NCBI GenBank assembly: GCA_021442505.1
Contig: JABUTC010000001.1
Span: forward strand, 1-26,409
Reading direction: 5' to 3'
DNA from: Mogibacterium sp.
GTDB taxonomy: Bacteria > Bacillota > Clostridia > Peptostreptococcales > Anaerovoracaceae
Length of the DNA: 26,409 nt
Position 1 is the stretch's first letter, and every line of letters starts with the position of its first letter. Shown here piece after piece: positions 12 to 25,179 of the stretch. Under the pieces are notes generated by a model. That model searched no databases. It saw only the letters and a list, made by a program, of their open reading frames with translations, and was not told the origin of the DNA. A program made the translations under genes and the position numbers.

Positions 12-3000
12 CTAATTAACGTAATATACCGTTGCATTTGGAGCACCCCACTTGTCTGGGGTGTCATAGCCAGAAGGCCATAGATTTTCAACTTCTTTTG
101 GAAGGGTTATTGACTTCAAACCGGTACAACAATCGTTCGTAGGTCCAAATATAGGACCTAGTTCATTTATATTGTTTGGTGTAGAGTCTGACGGCAAATT
201 CCATTTAATAAAAGACTTACCAAGTTGATTTAGAGTCTCTCCATCGTCCGTAAACTTCCAAGATCGGAAGGATATAGCTTCTAAGGATGTGCATCCTTTA
301 AACATACCGTTTACCCAACGTAGAGAATTTGTATCCCAGTTTTCTATGCCGTCGATCTTAGTTAACTTACTTTGTCCTTCGCACATACAAATCGTATTGT
401 AAAGATTTTCAGTTGAATTGAAATCTAGATCGAGCTCTTCGAGTTTAACTACATTCCCTGATTGAGTTGAATAGTTTTGGAATGCTCTATTTAGAGAGCT
501 AATAAGCCTTCCTCCTGGAGTACCCTTTATAGATCTTACATAACGGAAATCTACGCCTGTTGGAAGTTTTCCAGCAAACCAAGAGTAATTATGCACTGGA
601 ATATTGTCGTTCCAAACTATTGACGTTGGAGATTTGCTAGATGTATAAATATTCGGTTGATTCATCCATCTAGGCCAAGCAGCACTGTCCCAACCAAAAC
701 CAGATCCATTAGGACTGCTTCCTACCGCCATATTCCAAAGATCTGAATACCACCAAATAGATTGATATTTTGTAAATTTATCATAATCATCTTTGTATCC
801 GCCGTATATAGCTATAGGATAGTGGGTTGATGTTATAGAACTTTCAGGAAAGTCCCAACTAAATTCCATAACTCTATCGTTAAACAGCACCGCATATGGT
901 CTCCAATAACGAAAGTCTGGAAATTCAGATGTGTCGTTGGCATTATACGGATAATCAGTTCCAGCTCCGAAATATATATTAGCTGATTCAGCTCCCCATG
1001 GGTACTGATTTGCTACTTCTGGATTGTTTTTACATCTACCAGAAATATAGATAGAAGTAATTCCAGAATCAGAAAAAGCATTGTCTGAAATATAAGGAAT
1101 TTTCTTATCTGAAGAATCTACAGAATATTTATTCCTGCCTTTACCGATAAATATAGCTCTGTCTTCATGCTGCTTGCCTAATGTGAATACTAATGATCCT
1201 CTTCCCGGAAGGTTATTTCCGCTCGATCCAGGTACAGTCGGTACAAATTTAACAATTCCTGTTTCCTCATAAGGAGTTGTGCTAGAAGATCTATATATAG
1301 AATTGCATTGGAATTTATATTCGTCTCCTTCGCTTACGATATCACCGTCATAAGAAACTGCAAGCCATCTAAAAGATCCATAAGGTGTGAACCCCTCTTG
1401 CATGGTCGAACGTTGCATTTCAGCTTCATATTCTATATGAGAATATTCACCAAGACGATTATATACACCAAACATAGGACTACCATCATATTGATGGAAT
1501 CTGAAATTTCCTGGAAGATTATTTGATGTACAGGTGTTTGAAAATATTTGTAGATTACCAAATAAACGAACCAAAGCACCATATTGCGTTAAAACGGTCC
1601 AAGTCGTCAAACCTATACCATAATTTCCACTTGTTTCATGATTATGATGTATTCTAGGAAAATGAATTCTATCAGATAGATCCTTATTGCCAAGATCGTA
1701 ATGCATATTATAGATGCCCGCATCATATCCAAATACACTATGCGATTTAGCTTTATTTTGGTAAATATCCACGTCCCCAGAAACCTCAAGCCAACAATGG
1801 TCTAACGTTTGGCAAAATACTCCGCCAGTGTCGCCAGCTTCATTATGATGGATTTTAATACCTTGACTAGACGACAAATTCTTATCGTATTTGAGTCTAA
1901 CGTACGTACCCGACTTAGCAGAATTATTATAATAGCTAAAACCAACCACTCCGCCGTGCCCAGCTTTATTATTATAAAACTCACCGCCATAAATATCATA
2001 GTAAGTATCGTATGCTCTTTCAAGAGGTTTTTCTATTCCTAGAAAGCCTCCTCGGGAATTAGTATTATTACCATTATAGATTTTTATTTCGTTATTATAA
2101 TACTTACCACCATAAATTTCTAAACGATGGCCTGCTCTAGCTAACCAAAATGCGCCAGCTCCATTGGAAGGATTATCATCCCCTACGAGAGTGATGGCTC
2201 CACCAAGATGCATTCCAATATTTCCGAAATCATTATAATTTATACAATCATGAATTTTGCATCCTTCGTGAAGCAACAAAACGCTATGCCCATCCAGACA
2301 CGCAAACCCGCCAGAATTCGATGCATAGCAGTGATGAATATCCGCGTTCCATACATCGATTCTAGCTAAAGATCCATTCACGGAATATAAAGCACCCCAA
2401 TAGGGCATATGATATAGACTAATAGATTTAGTTCCAAGATTATAAATCTCTGGACCAGGAGTCTCTGTATCCTTCCATTTACCTAAAGAAAGTCTACAAT
2501 ATGAATACGATTTCTGAAAAGAAGCGAGCGTTCCCCTTGCGTACCAAATGCTATTTTGATCTGTAGTATGCCACCCACCTTCGTTATAAATCTTTCCAGA
2601 TTCATACTGAATAACATGGTTTGGCTTATTAAAACAAAATATAGAATGCATCAGTCCATTGTTCACAAAGGACTGACAATCATTATCATGAATGTCGCAA
2701 TCACGGAATATCCATTCAGAACTTCCGCTACCACAACTATCGCTTCCACAATAAAACTCTGGCCAAGCTCCATTACCATAATTTCCAGTAAATTCTATAT
2801 TCTCAAATAAAACATTAGCTATCGAATCAGTCCACAATATAGAATGATACCCTTTAGTGACTCTTCCTTTCAAATCCGCAGAAGATTTAAAGATAATACT
2901 TCCCTTCGATGCAGGACTGATTACAATACCTACCGCATGTGCACCTCTCTGGCCATCAGATGTGTTATTACAATCCCAAATACATCCATTGAGATCATAC

Positions 3001-3512
3001 TCAGTAATCGTATCTTTGTGATAAGCCAATAAGGCTCCTTCGGCGAAATTAGTATTTGGTTCATAAGCATACGCATAAGTCAACCGAGTCGATTCTGTTG
3101 ATTTTGGGAATTTTATTAAATAACGATATCCTTGTTTATCCTCTTTGTTTTGGTCAAGCAACCATCGATTAGCTTGCCCAGAATTATCGCCCATTTTCTC
3201 GAAATAATTAATCGAAATATAATCTCCATCGTTGAGATATCGTTTAGTTCCAATAATATACTTCGCGCTGCTCCACACAGCTTGAAATATAAACACTGTA
3301 GATTCAACATCCGTCAAATCAGCAGTAGCTCCAGGAGCATACGTCTGGCCATCATAACTCCATCCTTCGAATTTATAATTTTCATTGAAAAATGGGTCTT
3401 TTAGGTTTGCCAGCTGAGTTGGCATGGTAAATATCTTGTTTTGCTGGACTTTACGCTCTGGAAATACACCGGAGGTTTTTGCACCAGTAAAATCTGCTAC
3501 ATAATTAGCCAT
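12..3512 (-). CDS. Large tail fibre/adhesin-like protein (1166 aa): InlB B-repeat, parallel beta-helix, BspA/DUF285-like LRRs, WGA cap
   Basis: SD AAGGAG 5 nt before ATG; N-terminal YKFEGWSYDGQTYAPG..FQAVW (B-repeat); repeated N-x-A..GG motifs (YNNKAGHGGVV, HHNEAGDTGGVF, HLGGAI); LRRs ISDNAFSDSGITSI and WDTNSLRWVNGMFKGCTSLEAI; ends KWGAPNATVYYVN-TAG. Product is inferred. Confidence 0.75.
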   Translation of the reverse strand: MANYVADFTGAKTSGVFPERKVQQNKIFTMPTQLANLKDPFFNENYKFEGWSYDGQTYAPGATADLTDVESTVFIFQAVWSSAKYIIGTKRYLNDGDYISINYFEKMGDNSGQANRWLLDQNKEDKQGYRYLIKFPKSTESTRLTYAYAYEPNTNFAEGALLAYHKDTITEYDLNGCIWDCNNTSDGQRGAHAVGIVISPASKGSIIFKSSADLKGRVTKGYHSILWTDSIANVLFENIEFTGNYGNGAWPEFYCGSDSCGSGSSEWIFRDCDIHDNDCQSFVNNGLMHSIFCFNKPNHVIQYESGKIYNEGGWHTTDQNSIWYARGTLASFQKSYSYCRLSLGKWKDTETPGPEIYNLGTKSISLYHMPYWGALYSVNGSLARIDVWNADIHHCYASNSGGFACLDGHSVLLLHEGCKIHDCINYNDFGNIGMHLGGAITLVGDDNPSNGAGAFWLARAGHRLEIYGGKYYNNEIKIYNGNNTNSRGGFLGIEKPLERAYDTYYDIYGGEFYNNKAGHGGVVGFSYYNNSAKSGTYVRLKYDKNLSSSQGIKIHHNEAGDTGGVFCQTLDHCWLEVSGDVDIYQNKAKSHSVFGYDAGIYNMHYDLGNKDLSDRIHFPRIHHNHETSGNYGIGLTTWTVLTQYGALVRLFGNLQIFSNTCTSNNLPGNFRFHQYDGSPMFGVYNRLGEYSHIEYEAEMQRSTMQEGFTPYGSFRWLAVSYDGDIVSEGDEYKFQCNSIYRSSSTTPYEETGIVKFVPTVPGSSGNNLPGRGSLVFTLGKQHEDRAIFIGKGRNKYSVDSSDKKIPYISDNAFSDSGITSIYISGRCKNNPEVANQYPWGAESANIYFGAGTDYPYNANDTSEFPDFRYWRPYAVLFNDRVMEFSWDFPESSITSTHYPIAIYGGYKDDYDKFTKYQSIWWYSDLWNMAVGSSPNGSGFGWDSAAWPRWMNQPNIYTSSKSPTSIVWNDNIPVHNYSWFAGKLPTGVDFRYVRSIKGTPGGRLISSLNRAFQNYSTQSGNVVKLEELDLDFNSTENLYNTICMCEGQSKLTKIDGIENWDTNSLRWVNGMFKGCTSLEAISFRSWKFTDDGETLNQLGKSFIKWNLPSDSTPNNINELGPIFGPTNDCCTGLKSITLPKEVENLWPSGYDTPDKWGAPNATVYYVN

Positions 3513-3521
3513 ATCAACTCC

Positions 3522-4619
3522 TTAGTTAAATACTCCATCAAAAGCATTATCCTCAATTCGATCTATAACAGGAAAGAATATCTCTCGAGCCTTTGGATAA
3601 ATAGTAGTTTCTCCTTCGCAAGAGCACTTTCCAATCTCAAACTTACCTAAATTCTTTGAGTCAGAAAATGCGTATTGACCAAGCTCTTTAAGCTTCCAAA
3701 AATAATTGTGATTGTAGTACAAAGAATTAGTAGTCCAAATAGGATATACATAATCGAGTTTGTCACACCCGCTTAAGGCAGAATCTCCAATATACTCAAC
3801 ATTCGCCAAATATCGATCTACAAACTTATCACAATTTAGAAAAGTTCCATCGCCAATATACTGTAATGGAGAATCGCTACCAAATTTTTCATTCTCATTA
3901 GTTCTTGCATCTAATACTCCAGTAATAGTTTCCAAATTTATACAATTCTCAAACGGAGACATTGTATTAGATTCTAAAACCTTTAATTTCGGAGCCACAA
4001 CTTCCTTTAGAGAAGTACAAGAATTAAATGCTCCTGAGTGAATTGTGGTTGTCTCGTTCAAATATACAAACTCTATTGAAGAACAATGATTAAACATCTG
4101 TTTTGGAATCTCGGTTTCCTTTTCGAGATGAATCCCGATGGATTCGGCAGTACCGACATGCTTTAAATTTGTACATCCATTAAACTGCAGACCATCTTGA
4201 TCAAATATAACGTCCGCAGCCAGTATAACCCTCTCGAGAGAACTGCATTCAGAAAATGCACGATCTCCAACTTTTTTAGCATTTGGAAAATTCGCAGTAG
4301 GTCCGAAAGATATACATCCCCAGAAACACTTATCGCCAATTTCTTTAATCTGAACGCAATCCACAGATTCTAACTGCGTACAATCCGCAAAGACAGAAGT
4401 TCCAAGCTTGGTAATAAGCTCGTCGTCTTTAAAATGTTGAATTGTTCCAGATATAATCTTTCCAAGAGCTTCCGTATCGAAAGTTCCGTTAATGATCTGC
4501 CCTGTAGAGTCTGTGGCAGAAGTATTCTGAGCCAAATATGCTTTTGAAACCGTTTGGCTTCGAATATCCATAATTACTTTACCATGTTCAGTGGTAAATT
4601 TAGCTACAGTTTCTGCCAT
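3522..4619 (-). CDS. BspA-type leucine-rich repeat (LRR_5-like) protein, 365 aa, putative tail-associated adhesin
   Basis: About 10 repeats such as IGDKCFWGCISF, VGDRAFSECSSLERV, IHSGAFNSCTSLKEV, IGDGTFLNC. Start moved from 4640 to ATG 4619 (MAETV) because AAGGAG lies 6 nt upstream. Confidence 0.85.
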   Translation of the reverse strand: MAETVAKFTTEHGKVIMDIRSQTVSKAYLAQNTSATDSTGQIINGTFDTEALGKIISGTIQHFKDDELITKLGTSVFADCTQLESVDCVQIKEIGDKCFWGCISFGPTANFPNAKKVGDRAFSECSSLERVILAADVIFDQDGLQFNGCTNLKHVGTAESIGIHLEKETEIPKQMFNHCSSIEFVYLNETTTIHSGAFNSCTSLKEVVAPKLKVLESNTMSPFENCINLETITGVLDARTNENEKFGSDSPLQYIGDGTFLNCDKFVDRYLANVEYIGDSALSGCDKLDYVYPIWTTNSLYYNHNYFWKLKELGQYAFSDSKNLGKFEIGKCSCEGETTIYPKAREIFFPVIDRIEDNAFDGVFN

Positions 4620-4629
4620 AATATGCTCC

Positions 4630-5538
4630 TTATACATCATCGCAAGCGATGTTAATTGTCAAACCACCAGCTTCGTTCTCGATTTCTACATATGGAATTG
4701 GTTCTACAGTAATATCGTCGCTACACATCTTTCCTTCGGTTTCTAAATCTATATCGGTAGGCATTGGGAATACGTCGTATGGCCCATCATAATATTCAGC
4801 CGAACCACTATAATGCAGCACAACCGTTGCATCTGCACCCCAAGGAGATCCGTCGGATCCTGGGATAGCAGGCTCAGGCCATGGAATCCAAATGTCAGTT
4901 AAGGTATCACATCCAACAAAAGCCCAAGAATCTATATCAATTTTGCTAGATCCTTCGGGCAATTCCATATGGATTTCCTTTAGTCCAACTAATCCATCTA
5001 TAGCATACGCTTTTATCGAAGCTTCTTGAATTGTTAGCGAATTAATAGTATTAGGATTTCGTTCGATATAATCTATGTAAGTTTGCACATCCATAGATCC
5101 GCCGATCTTAATACCTGTTCGATCGTATGCCGTTTTGTCTTGTGCAAGTGTTTCTTTGGTAACCGTCAAGGGTCTAAGATCTATAGGATTTCCATCAGGA
5201 TAAATGTAATCTCCATATACAGGAATTCTCGTATCAGGATCAAATCCTATAAGTTCTCTTCTTGGAAAGCTGACCATATTATACACTTGCCATTTGGGCA
5301 AGAAACTTGTGTCTTTAGTCAGATTAAAAGAATCTCCAGGTTGATACAATTCTGTATCTTCTGAAGAATCATACCATCCGAGAAAAGCATATGGATAGTG
5401 CGAAATGTTCCATGGGTCTTCGTCCGTAGACAACGGAAGAATGTAGTCACCCGCTGGAACATCTTTAGTAGCACCATCATATGGAAGGCGTCCGGATTCA
5501 TCTAAATATCCGTTAAAAGCAAAGTTTACTTTTGGCAT
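4630..5538 (-). CDS. Accessory tail protein (302 aa): InlB B-repeat, short LRR, PWGA cap, C-terminal ITVEPIPY..NEAGG motif
   Basis: SD AAGGAGG 6 nt before ATG, TAATG coupling with the upstream gene; YAFLGWY..LYQPGDSFNLTKDTSFLPKW; IDSWAFVGCDTLTDIWI; GSPWGADATV. Confidence 0.75.
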   Translation of the reverse strand: MPKVNFAFNGYLDESGRLPYDGATKDVPAGDYILPLSTDEDPWNISHYPYAFLGWYDSSEDTELYQPGDSFNLTKDTSFLPKWQVYNMVSFPRRELIGFDPDTRIPVYGDYIYPDGNPIDLRPLTVTKETLAQDKTAYDRTGIKIGGSMDVQTYIDYIERNPNTINSLTIQEASIKAYAIDGLVGLKEIHMELPEGSSKIDIDSWAFVGCDTLTDIWIPWPEPAIPGSDGSPWGADATVVLHYSGSAEYYDGPYDVFPMPTDIDLETEGKMCSDDITVEPIPYVEIENEAGGLTINIACDDV

Positions 5539-19551: not shown

Positions 19552-20322
19552 TTAGTTCTTCTTATTGAACTTTGGTTTACCAGCTTCTGGAGCATGAGGT
19601 ACTTTTACTTCAGGCTCTGGGGTTTCTTCATTTTCTTTTACAAAGATGTCATAAATCTCCTGAGGAAATACGAGACGGGCATCATCAGTTTCAGAACCAT
19701 AAAGAATACCTTCAAGCTTCTTAAGTTTGTCATTCTGCGTACCGCTCTCAAGAGTAGAAGTATCCACTGTGACAGAAGCAGTTGGCTTAGCACCGATTAA
19801 CTCTGCAGGAGCAGCTACAGCAGTAGTGGTTGCCTCCCAAGACATAGTAATAGCCTCTGGAGAATCATTTACTGTCTGATACTGCTTTTCTGATGGAGAA
19901 GCAGTCATACCATAAATAATATGAATCTTATAGTTATCATCAGCTGTAGGATCGTCAGCGGAACCAACTTTGGTACGATAAGAAAGAGCAAAGATCTCTC
20001 TCTTCTGCTGTCCAATAGTAACACCCTCTTTAATATCCATAGAACCATCACAAGATTCGAATTCTTTTGGATACGTATATGCTTCGATAGTATTCTTTAG
20101 CTTCTCAGCAGAACGCATAGTAGCATATACAATGTTGTCGGCATACAGATCAGTAGCTTCAGCGCCTTCTGGGGTATCTGAAATAGAAGTAAGACCATTC
20201 CAAGCGACACCTTTCCAAGTTTCATTACCAGAGCCATCCTTAGTTTTCTTATAAAGAACACCATGATCTACGCCAGTTTCAAATTTACGATCAATAGTTT
20301 GATCCCATACAATAGCACTCAT
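19552..20322 (-). CDS. Major tail (tube) protein (256 aa)
   Basis: SD AAGGAGG; WDQ..KFETGVDHGVLY, AWNGLTSISDTPEG, LYADNIVY, YTYPKEF, YQTVNDSPEAITMSWE are typical siphovirus tail-tube motifs. Confidence 0.9.
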   Translation of the reverse strand: MSAIVWDQTIDRKFETGVDHGVLYKKTKDGSGNETWKGVAWNGLTSISDTPEGAEATDLYADNIVYATMRSAEKLKNTIEAYTYPKEFESCDGSMDIKEGVTIGQQKREIFALSYRTKVGSADDPTADDNYKIHIIYGMTASPSEKQYQTVNDSPEAITMSWEATTTAVAAPAELIGAKPTASVTVDTSTLESGTQNDKLKKLEGILYGSETDDARLVFPQEIYDIFVKENEETPEPEVKVPHAPEAGKPKFNKKN

Positions 20323-20975: not shown

Positions 20976-22910
20976 CTAGTTACCCTTCTTCTCGCTTTTT
21001 TTCTTATCTACATTTGTAGCAGCTTTACGAGTCTCGATACAAATTGCAGAATATGGCTTAATGAGAGCACCAGAACAACGAGTTTCAATTAGGTACTTAT
21101 ACTTATTGTAGTCGATATCAAAGTCATCGAACATATTTACAGCACCGCCCTTGTCAGCGCCAACATTATAATCCTGAAGATTTACAATAAGACCCTGAAG
21201 AGTTCTTTCTTTTGTCTCACCAGCAAGGGTTCTCTTCTGATTCTCCATTACAGGAACAGAGATGATCTTAGAAACGCGCATAGCAGTAGCAAGCTCTTGC
21301 TCAGTGTTGTACTTACGGCGCTTGTTAAGATCCTCAAGAAGTAGACAATCTGTTAGAATATCCTCTGTGCAGAATAGTGTTGGATTACCAGAACCCTTAT
21401 ATTCTTTACGAGCCTTGATAGACTGACGAATGAACTTCTCAGCAATCTCGTCACTTGTAAGAGTGTCGGCATCGATAACTGCTTGAATTGTGTAGAACTC
21501 GTCGTCCTTCCAAATTGGACGAATGTGATCCTCTTTGATCTTGTACTGGCTAGAATTCAGACGACCATCACCAATAAGGAATGCACGTGCGAGTTCCTCA
21601 TCTAGCATACCACGCATCTCAGTCTTAAGCCAAGAAACAACATCCATATCCGTGATATCGATAACATCGTCACGATCCATGGACTGGTGTTTATAAACAG
21701 TCTGAGGTTCTGTTACACGCTTAAGCAAAGAGAAGACCTCATCAATCTTCTTCTCGCCTTTTATGTAACCCAGAGCCCTAGCTTCGTCCTCAGTGATATC
21801 TGCATATAGGCACTTAATCCTGGAGAATGGAGTATTGTGAACGCCACTCATAACAGGTGCCACCCAATCTGTTCTACGCTGAACAAAGATTGGAGTATCA
21901 GTTACATTTTTTGCATCTGGGAACAAATAATCGATGTTCTCAATGCCATGCTGTAAGAAAGCTTTCTTCATAGAGCCAACGGACTCTGCATCGCGAAGGA
22001 TACCTACCATCTCATCGTGAGAAAGTGTATCGTTCAAACCATTAGGATCTTCGCCTTCGAAAATGTTATGTTTCATTGATTCCTCCTTGTTATTGAATGC
22101 GGATTGTTCCATATCTCCGCCTTCACCATTACTTTCAGTTGGTACATTACCCTTTTGTGCATCTTCAATAGCCATACCAATCATAGCATAAACGGCTTCT
22201 TTCTGTTTATCATTAAGAGTGTTAAAGATATCACCAATTGTCTCTTCAGACTGGTCACCTTCGTCACCCTGGGGGGCTTCTTCAGGTGCATCTTCAGGCT
22301 TCTCTTGTTTCATGGCTTTGCCATCTTTGATGTCTTTTTCTTCGGTCTTTTCTATCTCGACCATTACTTTTTTGTCTTTTTCAGTAGGCATATCTTTCCT
22401 TTCCTTCTTCTCTGAACCTCCAGAAGAACCACCACAAGCATGAACTAGCACTGGTTGATCAGAAGAATAAATGCATTCGTCCTCTACATAGGTTTCAACA
22501 CCATGCTGAAGAACTACGTTGTCAATAAATGCTCCTGGATTTGCTCCTGCCAATACGACACTTAGTTCTCTAATAACGCCATGCAATACATTAGAACCTT
22601 CCTGCTTTAGCTTATTAGCATAAATAGAAAGAGATCTAATATCACCATGCTTAAGCAATTCTTTAACGTCTTTTGCTTGTTCCGTATCGTTAAGATAACC
22701 ATAAGCATAAACGCCTTCAGATCCACGATCTTCTAGAGCAGCATGACCGATCACATTTGCTGGATCATTGTGCTGATGCTGCCAAACTAGAGGAACTGTT
22801 TTACCATCGCAGTGCTTAAAAGCATTAGGCTTAATTACACGACCATCAGAGCAACGAATATCGCATCTTGTAGCCCATCCAGAGAAATCGTAACTTTTTT
22901 CTTTACCCAT
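20976..22910 (-). CDS. Prohead protease-scaffold-major capsid protein fusion (644 aa, HK97 fold)
   Basis: SD AGGAG 5 nt before ATG; HK97 gp4-like protease motifs PLVWQH (putative catalytic His45), LSIY (putative Ser95) and ELSVVLAGANP; acidic low-complexity linker (about aa 160-300); capsid domain from GIENIDYLFPDA to ETRCSGALIKPYSA. Confidence 0.9.
   Translation of the reverse strand: MGKEKSYDFSGWATRCDIRCSDGRVIKPNAFKHCDGKTVPLVWQHQHNDPANVIGHAALEDRGSEGVYAYGYLNDTEQAKDVKELLKHGDIRSLSIYANKLKQEGSNVLHGVIRELSVVLAGANPGAFIDNVVLQHGVETYVEDECIYSSDQPVLVHACGGSSGGSEKKERKDMPTEKDKKVMVEIEKTEEKDIKDGKAMKQEKPEDAPEEAPQGDEGDQSEETIGDIFNTLNDKQKEAVYAMIGMAIEDAQKGNVPTESNGEGGDMEQSAFNNKEESMKHNIFEGEDPNGLNDTLSHDEMVGILRDAESVGSMKKAFLQHGIENIDYLFPDAKNVTDTPIFVQRRTDWVAPVMSGVHNTPFSRIKCLYADITEDEARALGYIKGEKKIDEVFSLLKRVTEPQTVYKHQSMDRDDVIDITDMDVVSWLKTEMRGMLDEELARAFLIGDGRLNSSQYKIKEDHIRPIWKDDEFYTIQAVIDADTLTSDEIAEKFIRQSIKARKEYKGSGNPTLFCTEDILTDCLLLEDLNKRRKYNTEQELATAMRVSKIISVPVMENQKRTLAGETKERTLQGLIVNLQDYNVGADKGGAVNMFDDFDIDYNKYKYLIETRCSGALIKPYSAICIETRKAATNVDKKKSEKKGN
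22074..22088 (-). promoter_or_regulatory. Internal ribosome-binding site and in-frame ATG (Met279) inside the protease-capsid gene
   Basis: Minus strand reads AAGGAGG-AATCA-ATG-AAA-CAT (MKH): a perfect SD at 5-nt spacing. Confidence 0.7.
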
Positions 22911-22925
22911 AATTTCTCCTATCTT

Positions 22926-24257
22926 TTATCCATCTTCATAGTACGGCGTTACGGCTGGGTCATTCATATTCACATCTAAATATGACTGTCCAGTTCCTTG
23001 ATCCATTGGCGGAACAGGTGGAGCATTAGGATCTATTCCCATAGTATCTGTAGGATATAGATTCTTATTGCTTAACTCTTCCGCTATTGGTGCATCAGAA
23101 ACAGGATAACCAAGTTCATCTCTGAATACATTCGACTCAACAATAGCATTACGTGTAAATGAATCTGCTATAGCGGCCATTTCGGTAACAGGAACAAACT
23201 TCAATGGATCTAAGAAGTATCCAATAGCTTGCCCTTGCGTTCTAGCAGTCTTAGTAATCCATTTTCTGGACATTTCGACTACTATCGCATTTAGTATTGG
23301 CGAAATAGTACGCTTATAGTAGTTATTCATAACTACAGCATCTGCAGTCCCTTTGAAAACGTCTTCCGTTAACCCTAACTGGTTGTATAACATGCTCGTT
23401 AGGTACTCAATTTGCGCTAGAAGATTATTTTCAGCAGGTCTGTTCAACTGCGTTACACGTTCTGTGCCATCAATATATGCAATTCCGTATTTTGACTCAA
23501 ATAATTGTTTTTCAATGTCTTCTTTTCTCTTAAAAGCTTGATCTCGCTTCTTATCTGTCTTAATTGTGTATGGTAACTGAATCAAAAGATCTAATTTACC
23601 AGAACTGCTTTGCTTATCTATAGCATCCAAATAAGCTAGCTTACGAATAAGCCTTTGAAGAGTAGAATTTGGTTGATTCATAACCGCATATAGAGGATTT
23701 TCTATTATAGCGCATAGCTTCTTCGGAACCGTTATCTCCTTTCGGTCTTGTAAAGCTTGGTTAAATAGATCTACCTTAATATGCTCTGGATACCAATCAA
23801 CTATCTTTGCTACTCGTAGAGATAGAATATCAAACGATCCTTTATACGGATTAGAATCGTAATCTACAGGAACAACGGCTACGGATCCTTCTTGAAACAT
23901 CGATAATACAATATCTGTAACCAACGCACTACCTATTTGATCGATATTAGCCTCATAATTTAGACAATCATTCAAAGAGCTATTTATTTCATATTTAAAA
24001 CGATGTTGTTCATCTCTCATCTCATGTCTAAGTCTAACTTCAGAAACATCCATAGCTATTTTATTATATAATCCAGCTACGATGGTTCTTTCGTTATCAA
24101 ACCTTAGCCTAACACGATCAGGTCTAGTAGAATTTGCAGGACCATAGTTTTCCCAATGTTCTGATGTAACATTGACGTTCTTTATATCCGTCGGATCCTT
24201 ATTAGCGGAAAAGATATTCCACTCATGTTTATAGCGGGTCCAAAAAGATGTCGCCAT
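22926..24257 (-). CDS. Portal protein, HK97 family (443 aa)
   Basis: SD AAAGGAGGT; LNDCLNYEANIDQ, GKLDLLIQLPY, YIDGTERVTQLNR, YYKRTISPI, NAIVESNVFRDELG; position before the protease/capsid gene. Confidence 0.93.
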   Translation of the reverse strand: MATSFWTRYKHEWNIFSANKDPTDIKNVNVTSEHWENYGPANSTRPDRVRLRFDNERTIVAGLYNKIAMDVSEVRLRHEMRDEQHRFKYEINSSLNDCLNYEANIDQIGSALVTDIVLSMFQEGSVAVVPVDYDSNPYKGSFDILSLRVAKIVDWYPEHIKVDLFNQALQDRKEITVPKKLCAIIENPLYAVMNQPNSTLQRLIRKLAYLDAIDKQSSSGKLDLLIQLPYTIKTDKKRDQAFKRKEDIEKQLFESKYGIAYIDGTERVTQLNRPAENNLLAQIEYLTSMLYNQLGLTEDVFKGTADAVVMNNYYKRTISPILNAIVVEMSRKWITKTARTQGQAIGYFLDPLKFVPVTEMAAIADSFTRNAIVESNVFRDELGYPVSDAPIAEELSNKNLYPTDTMGIDPNAPPVPPMDQGTGQSYLDVNMNDPAVTPYYEDG

Positions 24258-24258
24258 T

Positions 24259-25179
24259 CTACCTCCTTTGCCTTACATATTTAGCTTCTTCTTTTAAAGT
24301 ATTATCGTAGATATTAGAAGTTAGCTTTCCAGCCTTCTTAATATCTCTATGTTTACCTATAGCAGATCCAACCTCAGATAAAGCAGCCGTTTTAAGCAAA
24401 GATCTAATAGCTCCTTGCCCTCTAGCTCTATATGTCATATATGCTTTCGTCTGGAATGGATGCCCCATCAAAGAAGCTACTAATTTAACAGTTCTTCCAC
24501 GAGAATTCGCTTGTCTTTGCATTCCTTGATCTATTTCTGAAGATTTATCTGCTTTAGCCATCTCAACTAAAGCTTTTTTGGTCTTACCTTTGGAATATGC
24601 TCTTTCAGCTTTCTTAGTGTGCCTTTTTGTAGACCAAGATCTATAGTTATATGGCTGATTCTTTTTACGGGCTCGTCTAATGCCCCATCGCATCCCAGCG
24701 ATCCCGTAGTGAGCTAAAAAATAACCATCTCCATCGATAGATGAATGCTTTGCCGCATTAGACGCTGAAGATTTTATCTTCTTAGAACTCTTATAAATCG
24801 TTTGAGCATCTTTGTAGTCTTGTTGAAGCGTCTTATCTAAAGACATATTAACTACTTTGCTAGATCCAATCTTTACCGCTTTCTTAAACACAGAATCTTT
24901 GTCATTAAACAATGTATTTGTTATAAACTTCTTAACTTGGTAGCCAGGTTTGGACTTAGAGTACAATTCTTTAAATCTTTGCTCCCTTTCTAACCTATTT
25001 ATTCTGTGATCTAAGGCTTTATCGGACATCCCTCTTAAATTCTTTTTAGTAAACTTAAGATCTGCATTACGCTTCTGCTTATTAGCATCTAAACGAGCTT
25101 GTTGTGAAGACTTTTTTCGTCTAACACCCCATTTTTGGCCTCGTATGCCATAATGGACGAGTACATCTGCATCATACAT
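24259..25179 (-). CDS. Highly basic head-module protein (306 aa) with two HYGxxGxxWGxRR motifs; putative internal virion or DNA-binding protein
   Basis: SD GGAGG 9 nt before ATG; LVHYGIRGQKWGVRR (aa 7-21) and LAHYGIAGMRWGIRR (aa 155-169); manual count about 73 K/R versus about 26 D/E. Confidence 0.7.
   Translation of the reverse strand: MYDADVLVHYGIRGQKWGVRRKKSSQQARLDANKQKRNADLKFTKKNLRGMSDKALDHRINRLEREQRFKELYSKSKPGYQVKKFITNTLFNDKDSVFKKAVKIGSSKVVNMSLDKTLQQDYKDAQTIYKSSKKIKSSASNAAKHSSIDGDGYFLAHYGIAGMRWGIRRARKKNQPYNYRSWSTKRHTKKAERAYSKGKTKKALVEMAKADKSSEIDQGMQRQANSRGRTVKLVASLMGHPFQTKAYMTYRARGQGAIRSLLKTAALSEVGSAIGKHRDIKKAGKLTSNIYDNTLKEEAKYVRQRR

Follow-up and report, generated by a model that had tools for sequence, protein, structure and literature searches.

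How is a head protein that carries its prohead protease, scaffold and major capsid protein on a single polypeptide taken apart, and at which bonds would the protease cut? The question is raised by a 26,409-nt stretch of DNA from Mogibacterium sp. (the window), which is an entire 26.4-kb contig from a metagenome-assembled genome that is 66% complete. The open reading frame (ORF) list and translation place a 644-aa protease–scaffold–capsid fusion, P0001, at positions 20976-22910 on the minus strand. Comparison of this protein with its relatives makes it likely that the fused protease cuts after the His of a short motif, hydrophobic-x-His, which recurs in the linker between protease and capsid domains.

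The window protein is a member of the phrog_3270 fusion family. With proteins annotated as "major capsid and protease fusion protein" in Gordonia, Arthrobacter and Streptomyces phages it shares 42-47% identity, and with its counterparts in Lactococcus phages 1706 and P078, 33%. The family comprises at least 8,000 database proteins (8,000 of 8,000 scored candidates in one search), with 1,632 cluster representatives matched in a second search, and is present in 244 sequenced phages, many of them cultured SEA-PHAGES isolates. The protease–capsid fusion itself has already been described (PMC5513430). The published accounts of the family that we found, in the portions available, deal with the fusion only and mention no cleavage sites, His motif or nested start. 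The protein consists of an S78 serine protease (aa 1-133), a linker, a short helical propeptide and an HK97-fold capsid protein; the linker is mostly disordered, acidic and scaffold-like, with one conserved helical module. The features of the fusion gene, with structural assignments from AlphaFold2 (AF2) where noted, are as follows.

20976-22910, minus strand: fusion protein gene P0001 (end-to-end match to phrog_3270, E 3e-211)
22512-22910, minus strand: prohead protease domain, aa 1-133 (Pfam PF04586 and fold)
22776-22778, minus strand: predicted catalytic His45, invariant in homologues
22626-22628, minus strand: predicted catalytic Ser95, invariant in homologues
22566-22568, minus strand: invariant Glu115, candidate acidic third residue
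22503-22511, minus strand: candidate site 1, LQH136 followed by G, just past the last protease strand; His in 150 of 150 homologues
22440-22448, minus strand: candidate site 2, LVH157 followed by A; His conserved, with L/I/M at -2, in 118 of 120 close homologues
22155-22241, minus strand: conserved helical scaffold-like module, aa 224-252 (AF2 helices 225-230 and 234-252)
22068-22076, minus strand: MKH281, formerly counted as the third site; its M is the nested start codon, which leaves H281 as the only possible motif residue
22017-22025, minus strand: candidate site 4, LSH298 followed by D, at the start of propeptide helix 298-311 (AF2)
21948-21956, minus strand: candidate maturation site, LQH321 followed by G322; His and Gly invariant in 120 close homologues
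20979-21947, minus strand: predicted mature major capsid protein, aa 322-644, 37.0 kDa (HK97 fold)

Of the 14 His in the protein, six lie in the protease domain, five in the linker (aa 133-321) and three in the capsid domain. An earlier note on this DNA had reported L or M at -2 of all five linker His (LQH136, LVH157, MKH281, LSH298 and LQH321), and the translation bears this out, with 21948-22511 running from the L134 codon to the H321 codon. Also as reported, H321 is followed directly by the segment that begins GIENID (21912-21947), a conserved N-arm, and no capsid-domain His is L-x-H (GVH358, YKH408, EDH462). The contrast that the note drew with the rest of the protein holds against the capsid domain but is less clean for the protease domain, in which three of the six His likewise follow an aliphatic residue at -2 (IGH56, LKH88 and VLH110) and are conserved. 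In the other window genes, the share of His that follow such a residue lies roughly between a quarter and a half. The chance of five L/M in five at -2, given the linker content of L+M (8.5%), is 4e-6, and that of five L/I/M/V (19%) is 2.5e-4, neither value being corrected for the post hoc choice of pattern. The motif sits in sequence predicted by AF2 to be disordered (aa 118-223, 249-293) or at the ends of short helices. The full-length AF2 model is poor (predicted local distance difference test score, pLDDT, 60) and was used solely for secondary structure and the capsid fold search.

We examined the motif in a close set of 120 homologues, 50-59% identical to the window protein, and in 127 representatives, which are well-anchored members each drawn from a 50%-identity cluster, with linker bounds set by alignment. 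In the close set, each of the five linker His is kept in 118-120 of the 120 sequences, always with L/I/M/V at -2, and the three capsid-domain His are not conserved. The first site has L/I/M/V at -2 in all 120 and is absent from stand-alone S78 proteases; LVH157 is found in most distant phage homologues; and His298, with L/I at -2, is kept throughout the close set (120 of 120) and by 108 of the 127 representatives. Among the representatives, the 878 linker His make up 3.6% of linker residues, compared with 1.0% in the capsid domain. The earlier note had proposed enrichment in homologous linkers as its own test, and the enrichment is strong: 85% of linker His carry L/I/M/V at -2, against a background of 18% and at most 27% for every other residue type. 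Lys (13%) and Arg (20%) show no enrichment, and the value for capsid-domain His is 21%. Each linker carries a median of 6 motifs (range 3-9) at a median spacing of 27 residues. A sample of six cultured phages drawn from two bacterial phyla gave 45 of 52 fitting His in the linker vs 1 of 19 in the capsid domain.

Such a pattern could in principle arise from chance or shared ancestry alone, with five inherited His that happen to follow aliphatic residues; the five sites of the window protein are indeed aligned columns inherited throughout the family. Linker His outside these columns, however, still fit in 355 of 478 cases (74%), composition-preserving shuffles yield 163.5 ± 11.2 motifs vs 745 observed (z about 52), and the capsid-domain His do not fit. 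We therefore regard this explanation as very improbable.

An unbiased scan of residue pairs at spacings 1-3 in the linkers ranked L-x-H first (376 observed vs 48 expected, z = 48), followed by H-S, H-x-D, I-x-H, H-A and M-x-H. Downstream of linker His, the next residue is S/A/G/D/N in 86% and the one after it D/E in 55%. The pair scan and residue counts together give the logo [L/I/M/V]-x-H-[S/A/G/D/N]-[D/E]. The L/M code of the earlier note is correct as far as L and M go but too narrow, as I and V also occur at the first position and a small residue follows the His. In the P3-P2-P1/P1' notation for residues on either side of a cut, this motif shares the layout of a selected P3, a free P2, a fixed P1 and a small P1' with known proteases of the same fold, and on that ground we place the cut after His.

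The fused gene would then encode a self-processing head polyprotein, in which the protease recognizes [L/I/M/V]-x-His plus a small residue and cuts after the His. Cleavage after His136 would free a 15-kDa protease, cuts after His157 and His298 would dice the linker into small acidic pieces, and cleavage after His321 would give a mature capsid protein beginning at Gly322. A nested product starting at Met279, lacking the protease and carrying the last two sites, would supply most of the shell subunits.

The motif might instead be a processing signal in which His is not P1, the cut falling one or two bonds away, or one that is read by a host protease rather than by the fused protease. The register is set solely by analogy with the T4 and herpesvirus motifs, and processing of phage capsid proteins by a host protease is documented for 80alpha (cited in PMC8569155). 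Strong conservation nevertheless ends at P3 and P1'/P2', as expected for a cut after His, and the motif accompanies this protease family in phages of both Firmicutes and Actinobacteria, which argues against a host enzyme. We judge these variants improbable and continue with cleavage after His by the fused protease.

Is the N-terminal domain a protease of a suitable kind? Residues 24-130 match PF04586 (Peptidase_S78) with 33.5 bits vs a cut-off of 21; the score for the stricter equivalog TIGR01543, 36.6, is below its threshold of 59. H45, S95, E115 and H136 are invariant in 150 diverse homologues (150 of 150), and in an alignment with four stand-alone S78 proteases, H45 and S95 fall on the motifs W-N-H and M-S-F. 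The AF2 model of the isolated domain has a pLDDT of 89.6 overall and 98 over aa 11-130; its last strand spans aa 128-132, and confidence falls sharply at aa 133-141. In a fold search of 48,161 chains, the best match was the varicella-zoster virus protease (Z 9.8, root mean square deviation [rmsd] 2.8, 113 aligned), together with T4 gp21 (5JBL; Z 9.8, rmsd 3.0, 120 aligned), the human cytomegalovirus protease (Z 8.0) and the Kaposi's sarcoma-associated herpesvirus protease (Z 6.4); the next unrelated row had Z 4.0. The modeled domain thus has the assemblin/T4 gp21 fold. A predicted complex of the protease (aa 1-133) with segment 304-340 scored 0.01, which speaks neither for nor against recognition of that segment.

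A role for His136 as the third catalytic residue, in a herpesvirus-style Ser-His-His arrangement, was considered and rejected, since this residue is absent from the four stand-alone S78 proteases and lies outside the confidently folded domain. T4-type proteases use an acidic third catalytic residue (PMC5694885), for which the invariant Glu115 is the candidate here, and this further disfavors a catalytic His136. Its absence from the stand-alone enzymes and its position just past the folded domain lead us to read it as a protease-release site. The three protease-domain His that fit the pattern, spanned by 22581-22745 on the minus strand, are conserved within the fusion family and are all absent from the four stand-alone S78 proteases; they may be self-destruction sites or structural residues.

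At the other end of the linker, the predicted junction can be compared with that of HK97-type capsid proteins. The C-terminal half of the protein matches PF05065 (Phage_capsid) only weakly (16.8 bits, below the cut-off of 24.2). A structural search with the full-length model (VIA-align) retrieved the gene transfer agent capsid 6TB9 (Z 15.0, rmsd 3.5, 224 aligned), HK97 1OHG (Z 13.4, rmsd 7.1, 243 aligned) and dozens of phage capsids and encapsulins at Z 12-14; by this model, the domain is an HK97 fold. In all 127 representatives, a hydrophobic-x-His lies 5-44 residues ahead of the conserved N-arm L-F-P. The distance is mostly 9 (36 proteins, the register of the window protein) or 13 (42 proteins), and in the latter a Tyr aligns to H321 and the hydrophobic-x-His stands four residues upstream. 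The motif is thus kept while its exact place moves. By the last hydrophobic-x-His ahead of L-F-P, the mature capsid protein is predicted to begin after His326 in Gordonia phage TenaciousP gp22, after His289 in Arthrobacter phage BenitoAntonio gp12, after His327 in Lactococcus phage 1706 orf10 and after His330 in Lactococcus phage P078 (P078_0011). The mature HK97 capsid protein starts at residue 104, and its residue 108 aligns structurally with model residue 316, which places the predicted cut after 321 at the point where maturation occurs in HK97-type capsid proteins. Sequence searches of the PDB found no solved relative able to show a mature N-terminus. Many homologues (P0002, L002-L007) carry 60-200 additional C-terminal residues past the capsid fold that are absent from the window protein and are possibly surface decoration domains.

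Enrichment in relatives and a layout like that of known motifs sustain the L-x-H reading of the earlier note for four of its linker sites; MKH281 is better explained by a second translation start.

22074-22087, minus strand: nested ribosome-binding site AGGAGG (22082-22087), a 5-nt spacer and the ATG of Met279 (22074-22076), seen in the sequence

This AGGAGG is a stronger Shine–Dalgarno match than the one at the start of the long form. In 78 related loci, the aligned codon is always a start (ATG in 66, GTG in 10 and TTG in 2), and a Shine–Dalgarno match of at least 5 nt precedes 88% of these nested starts vs 3.1% of other in-frame start-type codons in the same genes. Across the 78 loci, the nested Shine–Dalgarno stretch encodes 50 different amino-acid 4-mers, which indicates selection on the nucleotides. 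The His281 column is moderately conserved (H 66, R 17, K 10, Q 9 and Y 7 of 127). By these comparisons, MKH281 appears to be mainly the nested start rather than a cleavage site. The conserved start codon and Shine–Dalgarno sequence imply that a short pro-capsid protein is likely made, probably spanning aa 279-644 (41.8 kDa) with a 43-residue propeptide that contains sites 298 and 321. Such a product would solve a stoichiometry problem, namely how a fused protease–capsid gene could still supply hundreds of capsid subunits per head.

Contig C158 of this metagenome-assembled genome holds a second gene of the fusion family (locus L093, about 2987-4792, minus strand). Its 607-aa protein is about 55% identical to the window protein, six of its seven linker His fit hydrophobic-x-His, and it has its own AGGAGG-ATG nested start.

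Does the motif occur in other head proteins? Two genes beside the fusion gene bear on this point.

22926-24257: portal, head-module neighbor
24225-24233, minus strand: portal N-terminal YKH11, possible propeptide site (aligned motif in relatives)
24259-25179, minus strand: 306-aa basic protein with two DUF7211 motifs, head-module neighbor
24709-25161, minus strand: DUF7211 tags of the 306-aa basic protein, LVH9 (25153-25161) and LAH157 (24709-24717) (Pfam PF23847, E 2e-15)

The earlier note had pointed to the likeness of portal YKH11 to the code. Its position is confirmed, and relatives carry a conserved L-K-H/A-W-N-A-F where the window has Y-K-H. Of 64 related loci aligned at the portal motif, 63 show L/I/F at P3, 47 have His at P1 and 63 carry A/G/S at P1'. 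For the DUF7211 motif, 67 copies were counted in 46 of 87 related loci, every one with His and with L/I/M at -2 (67 of 67 each). Most copies lie within about 30 residues of the ORF start and some are internal, as in the two-unit protein of the window. The presence of this tag on the portal and on DUF7211 modules points to trimming of these head proteins by the fused protease, and the 306-aa protein may be a two-unit cargo polyprotein that this enzyme releases. A drift in specificity in phages whose portal lacks the His was looked for and not found; their linkers still use His (90%).

Two further resemblances were seen among these N-termini. Both DUF7211 tags of the very basic 306-aa protein open with hydrophobic-x-His and then Y-G-I, resembling the capsid maturation junction of relatives (hydrophobic-x-His, A-x-x, Y-G-I). 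The portal N-terminus K-H-x-W-N-I-F (24204-24233, minus strand) and the nested pro-capsid N-terminus K-H-N-I-F (22056-22076, minus strand) are also alike, and relatives of both keep the pattern K-H...N-[A/I/V]-F, which may reflect a common partner or common P' preferences. The head module of the window also holds a major tail protein (19552-20322) and the C-terminal part of a large terminase.

With these proteins in hand, a structural role for the motif can be weighed. Hydrophobic-x-His might be a structural or assembly signal of the scaffold, for instance a switch that responds to pH or metal or a point of contact with the inside of the shell, with the protease cutting elsewhere or with little sequence preference. 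The sites of HK97-like proteases have been described as having little in common apart from a basic P1 (PMC8569155), His136 is as invariant as a functional residue, and conserved His in the folded protease show the pattern too. Yet the motif recurs at nonhomologous positions in disordered, otherwise unconserved acidic sequence. The helical module, likely a scaffolding element and the only well-conserved part of the long linker, is shared by the phages of Firmicutes and of Actinobacteria; longer homologues have it in duplicate, with hydrophobic-x-His on both sides of each copy. Loss of the motif at the maturation junction is offset by another four residues away, it is followed by a small P1' as in known cleavage motifs, and it heads the unrelated DUF7211 and portal proteins. 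We consider a purely structural signal unlikely.

Several observations nonetheless weigh against cleavage after His by the fused protease. We observe the motif and its conservation, the fold and the nested start signal; the scissile bond and the products we infer, and cleavage as such rests on analogy and comparative evidence. The literature searched yielded no mass-spectrometric, N-terminal or other proteomic data for any family member. The portal position is occupied by N, R, K or Q rather than His in 17 of 64 loci. His56, His88 and His110 fit the pattern inside a folded domain, where accessible sites are unlikely. The invariance of His136 equals that of the catalytic residues, and an extra structural role is possible. 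Finally, many of the His counted in the linkers are inherited and not independent.

If the His code is correct, mature termini of capsid, portal and cargo proteins become predictable across a large phage group, DUF7211 gains a testable role, and a rare P1-His specificity is added to the assemblin-like protease fold. A wider picture, which we offer tentatively and regard as somewhat less likely than not, is that one His-specific head protease might run a T4-like program of loading and release in siphoviruses of gut Firmicutes and soil Actinobacteria, which would form one very large lineage. It would dice the scaffold, mature the capsid, trim the portal and free basic DUF7211-tagged cargo inside the head, while the proportion of capsid subunits with and without a protease would be set by the nested start.

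How does this system compare with known head proteases? The readable motifs of T4 and phiKZ have allowed mature virion proteins, propeptides and packaged cargo to be predicted from sequence alone; to our knowledge, no such cleavage code is available for HK97-type proteases. T4-type and phiKZ-type proteases cut after Glu in short x-x-E motifs at many scaffold and core sites and propeptides, trim the N-terminal propeptides of several head proteins and process themselves (PMC5694885). The fusion protein resembles T4 gp21 (MEROPS S77) and phiKZ gp175/SPN3US gp245 (S80) in fold class, in a fixed P1 with a constrained P3, in recurring linker sites, in motifs at the capsid propeptide junction and near the N-termini of other head proteins, and in a predicted autoprocessing. 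It differs in that P1 is Glu there and apparently His here, and in that those large myoviruses encode the protease in a separate gene, whereas the window has a siphovirus-type head module in which scaffold and capsid are joined to it.

With herpesvirus assemblin (S21), the best structural match, it shares a protease fused to scaffold and a nested shorter product alongside. Assemblin sites have a hydrophobic P3, any P2, Ala at P1 and Ser at P1'; the Ala P1, the Ser-His-His triad and a capsid protein outside the fusion set that system apart. With HK97 gp4, for which P1 of the cleavage site is Lys103, and with Staphylococcus phage phi12 gp32, it shares the Peptidase S78 Pfam family and the removal, predicted here, of an N-terminal delta or scaffold domain from a capsid protein of HK97 fold. 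The phi12 enzyme is HK97-like and cleaves after K or R (R128 and K87 in phi12/SaPIbov5; PMC8569155). For such enzymes a positively charged P1 and no clear multi-position motif have been described, in contrast to the His motif here, and the capsid delta domains paired with the four stand-alone S78 proteases contain 0-1 His each. The earlier note had supposed a P1-His specificity to be undescribed, and we likewise found no P1-His cleavage by a phage head protease, although precedent may exist beyond the literature searched. Well supported by comparison, hydrophobic-x-His is thus probably a new specificity variant of a known mechanism.

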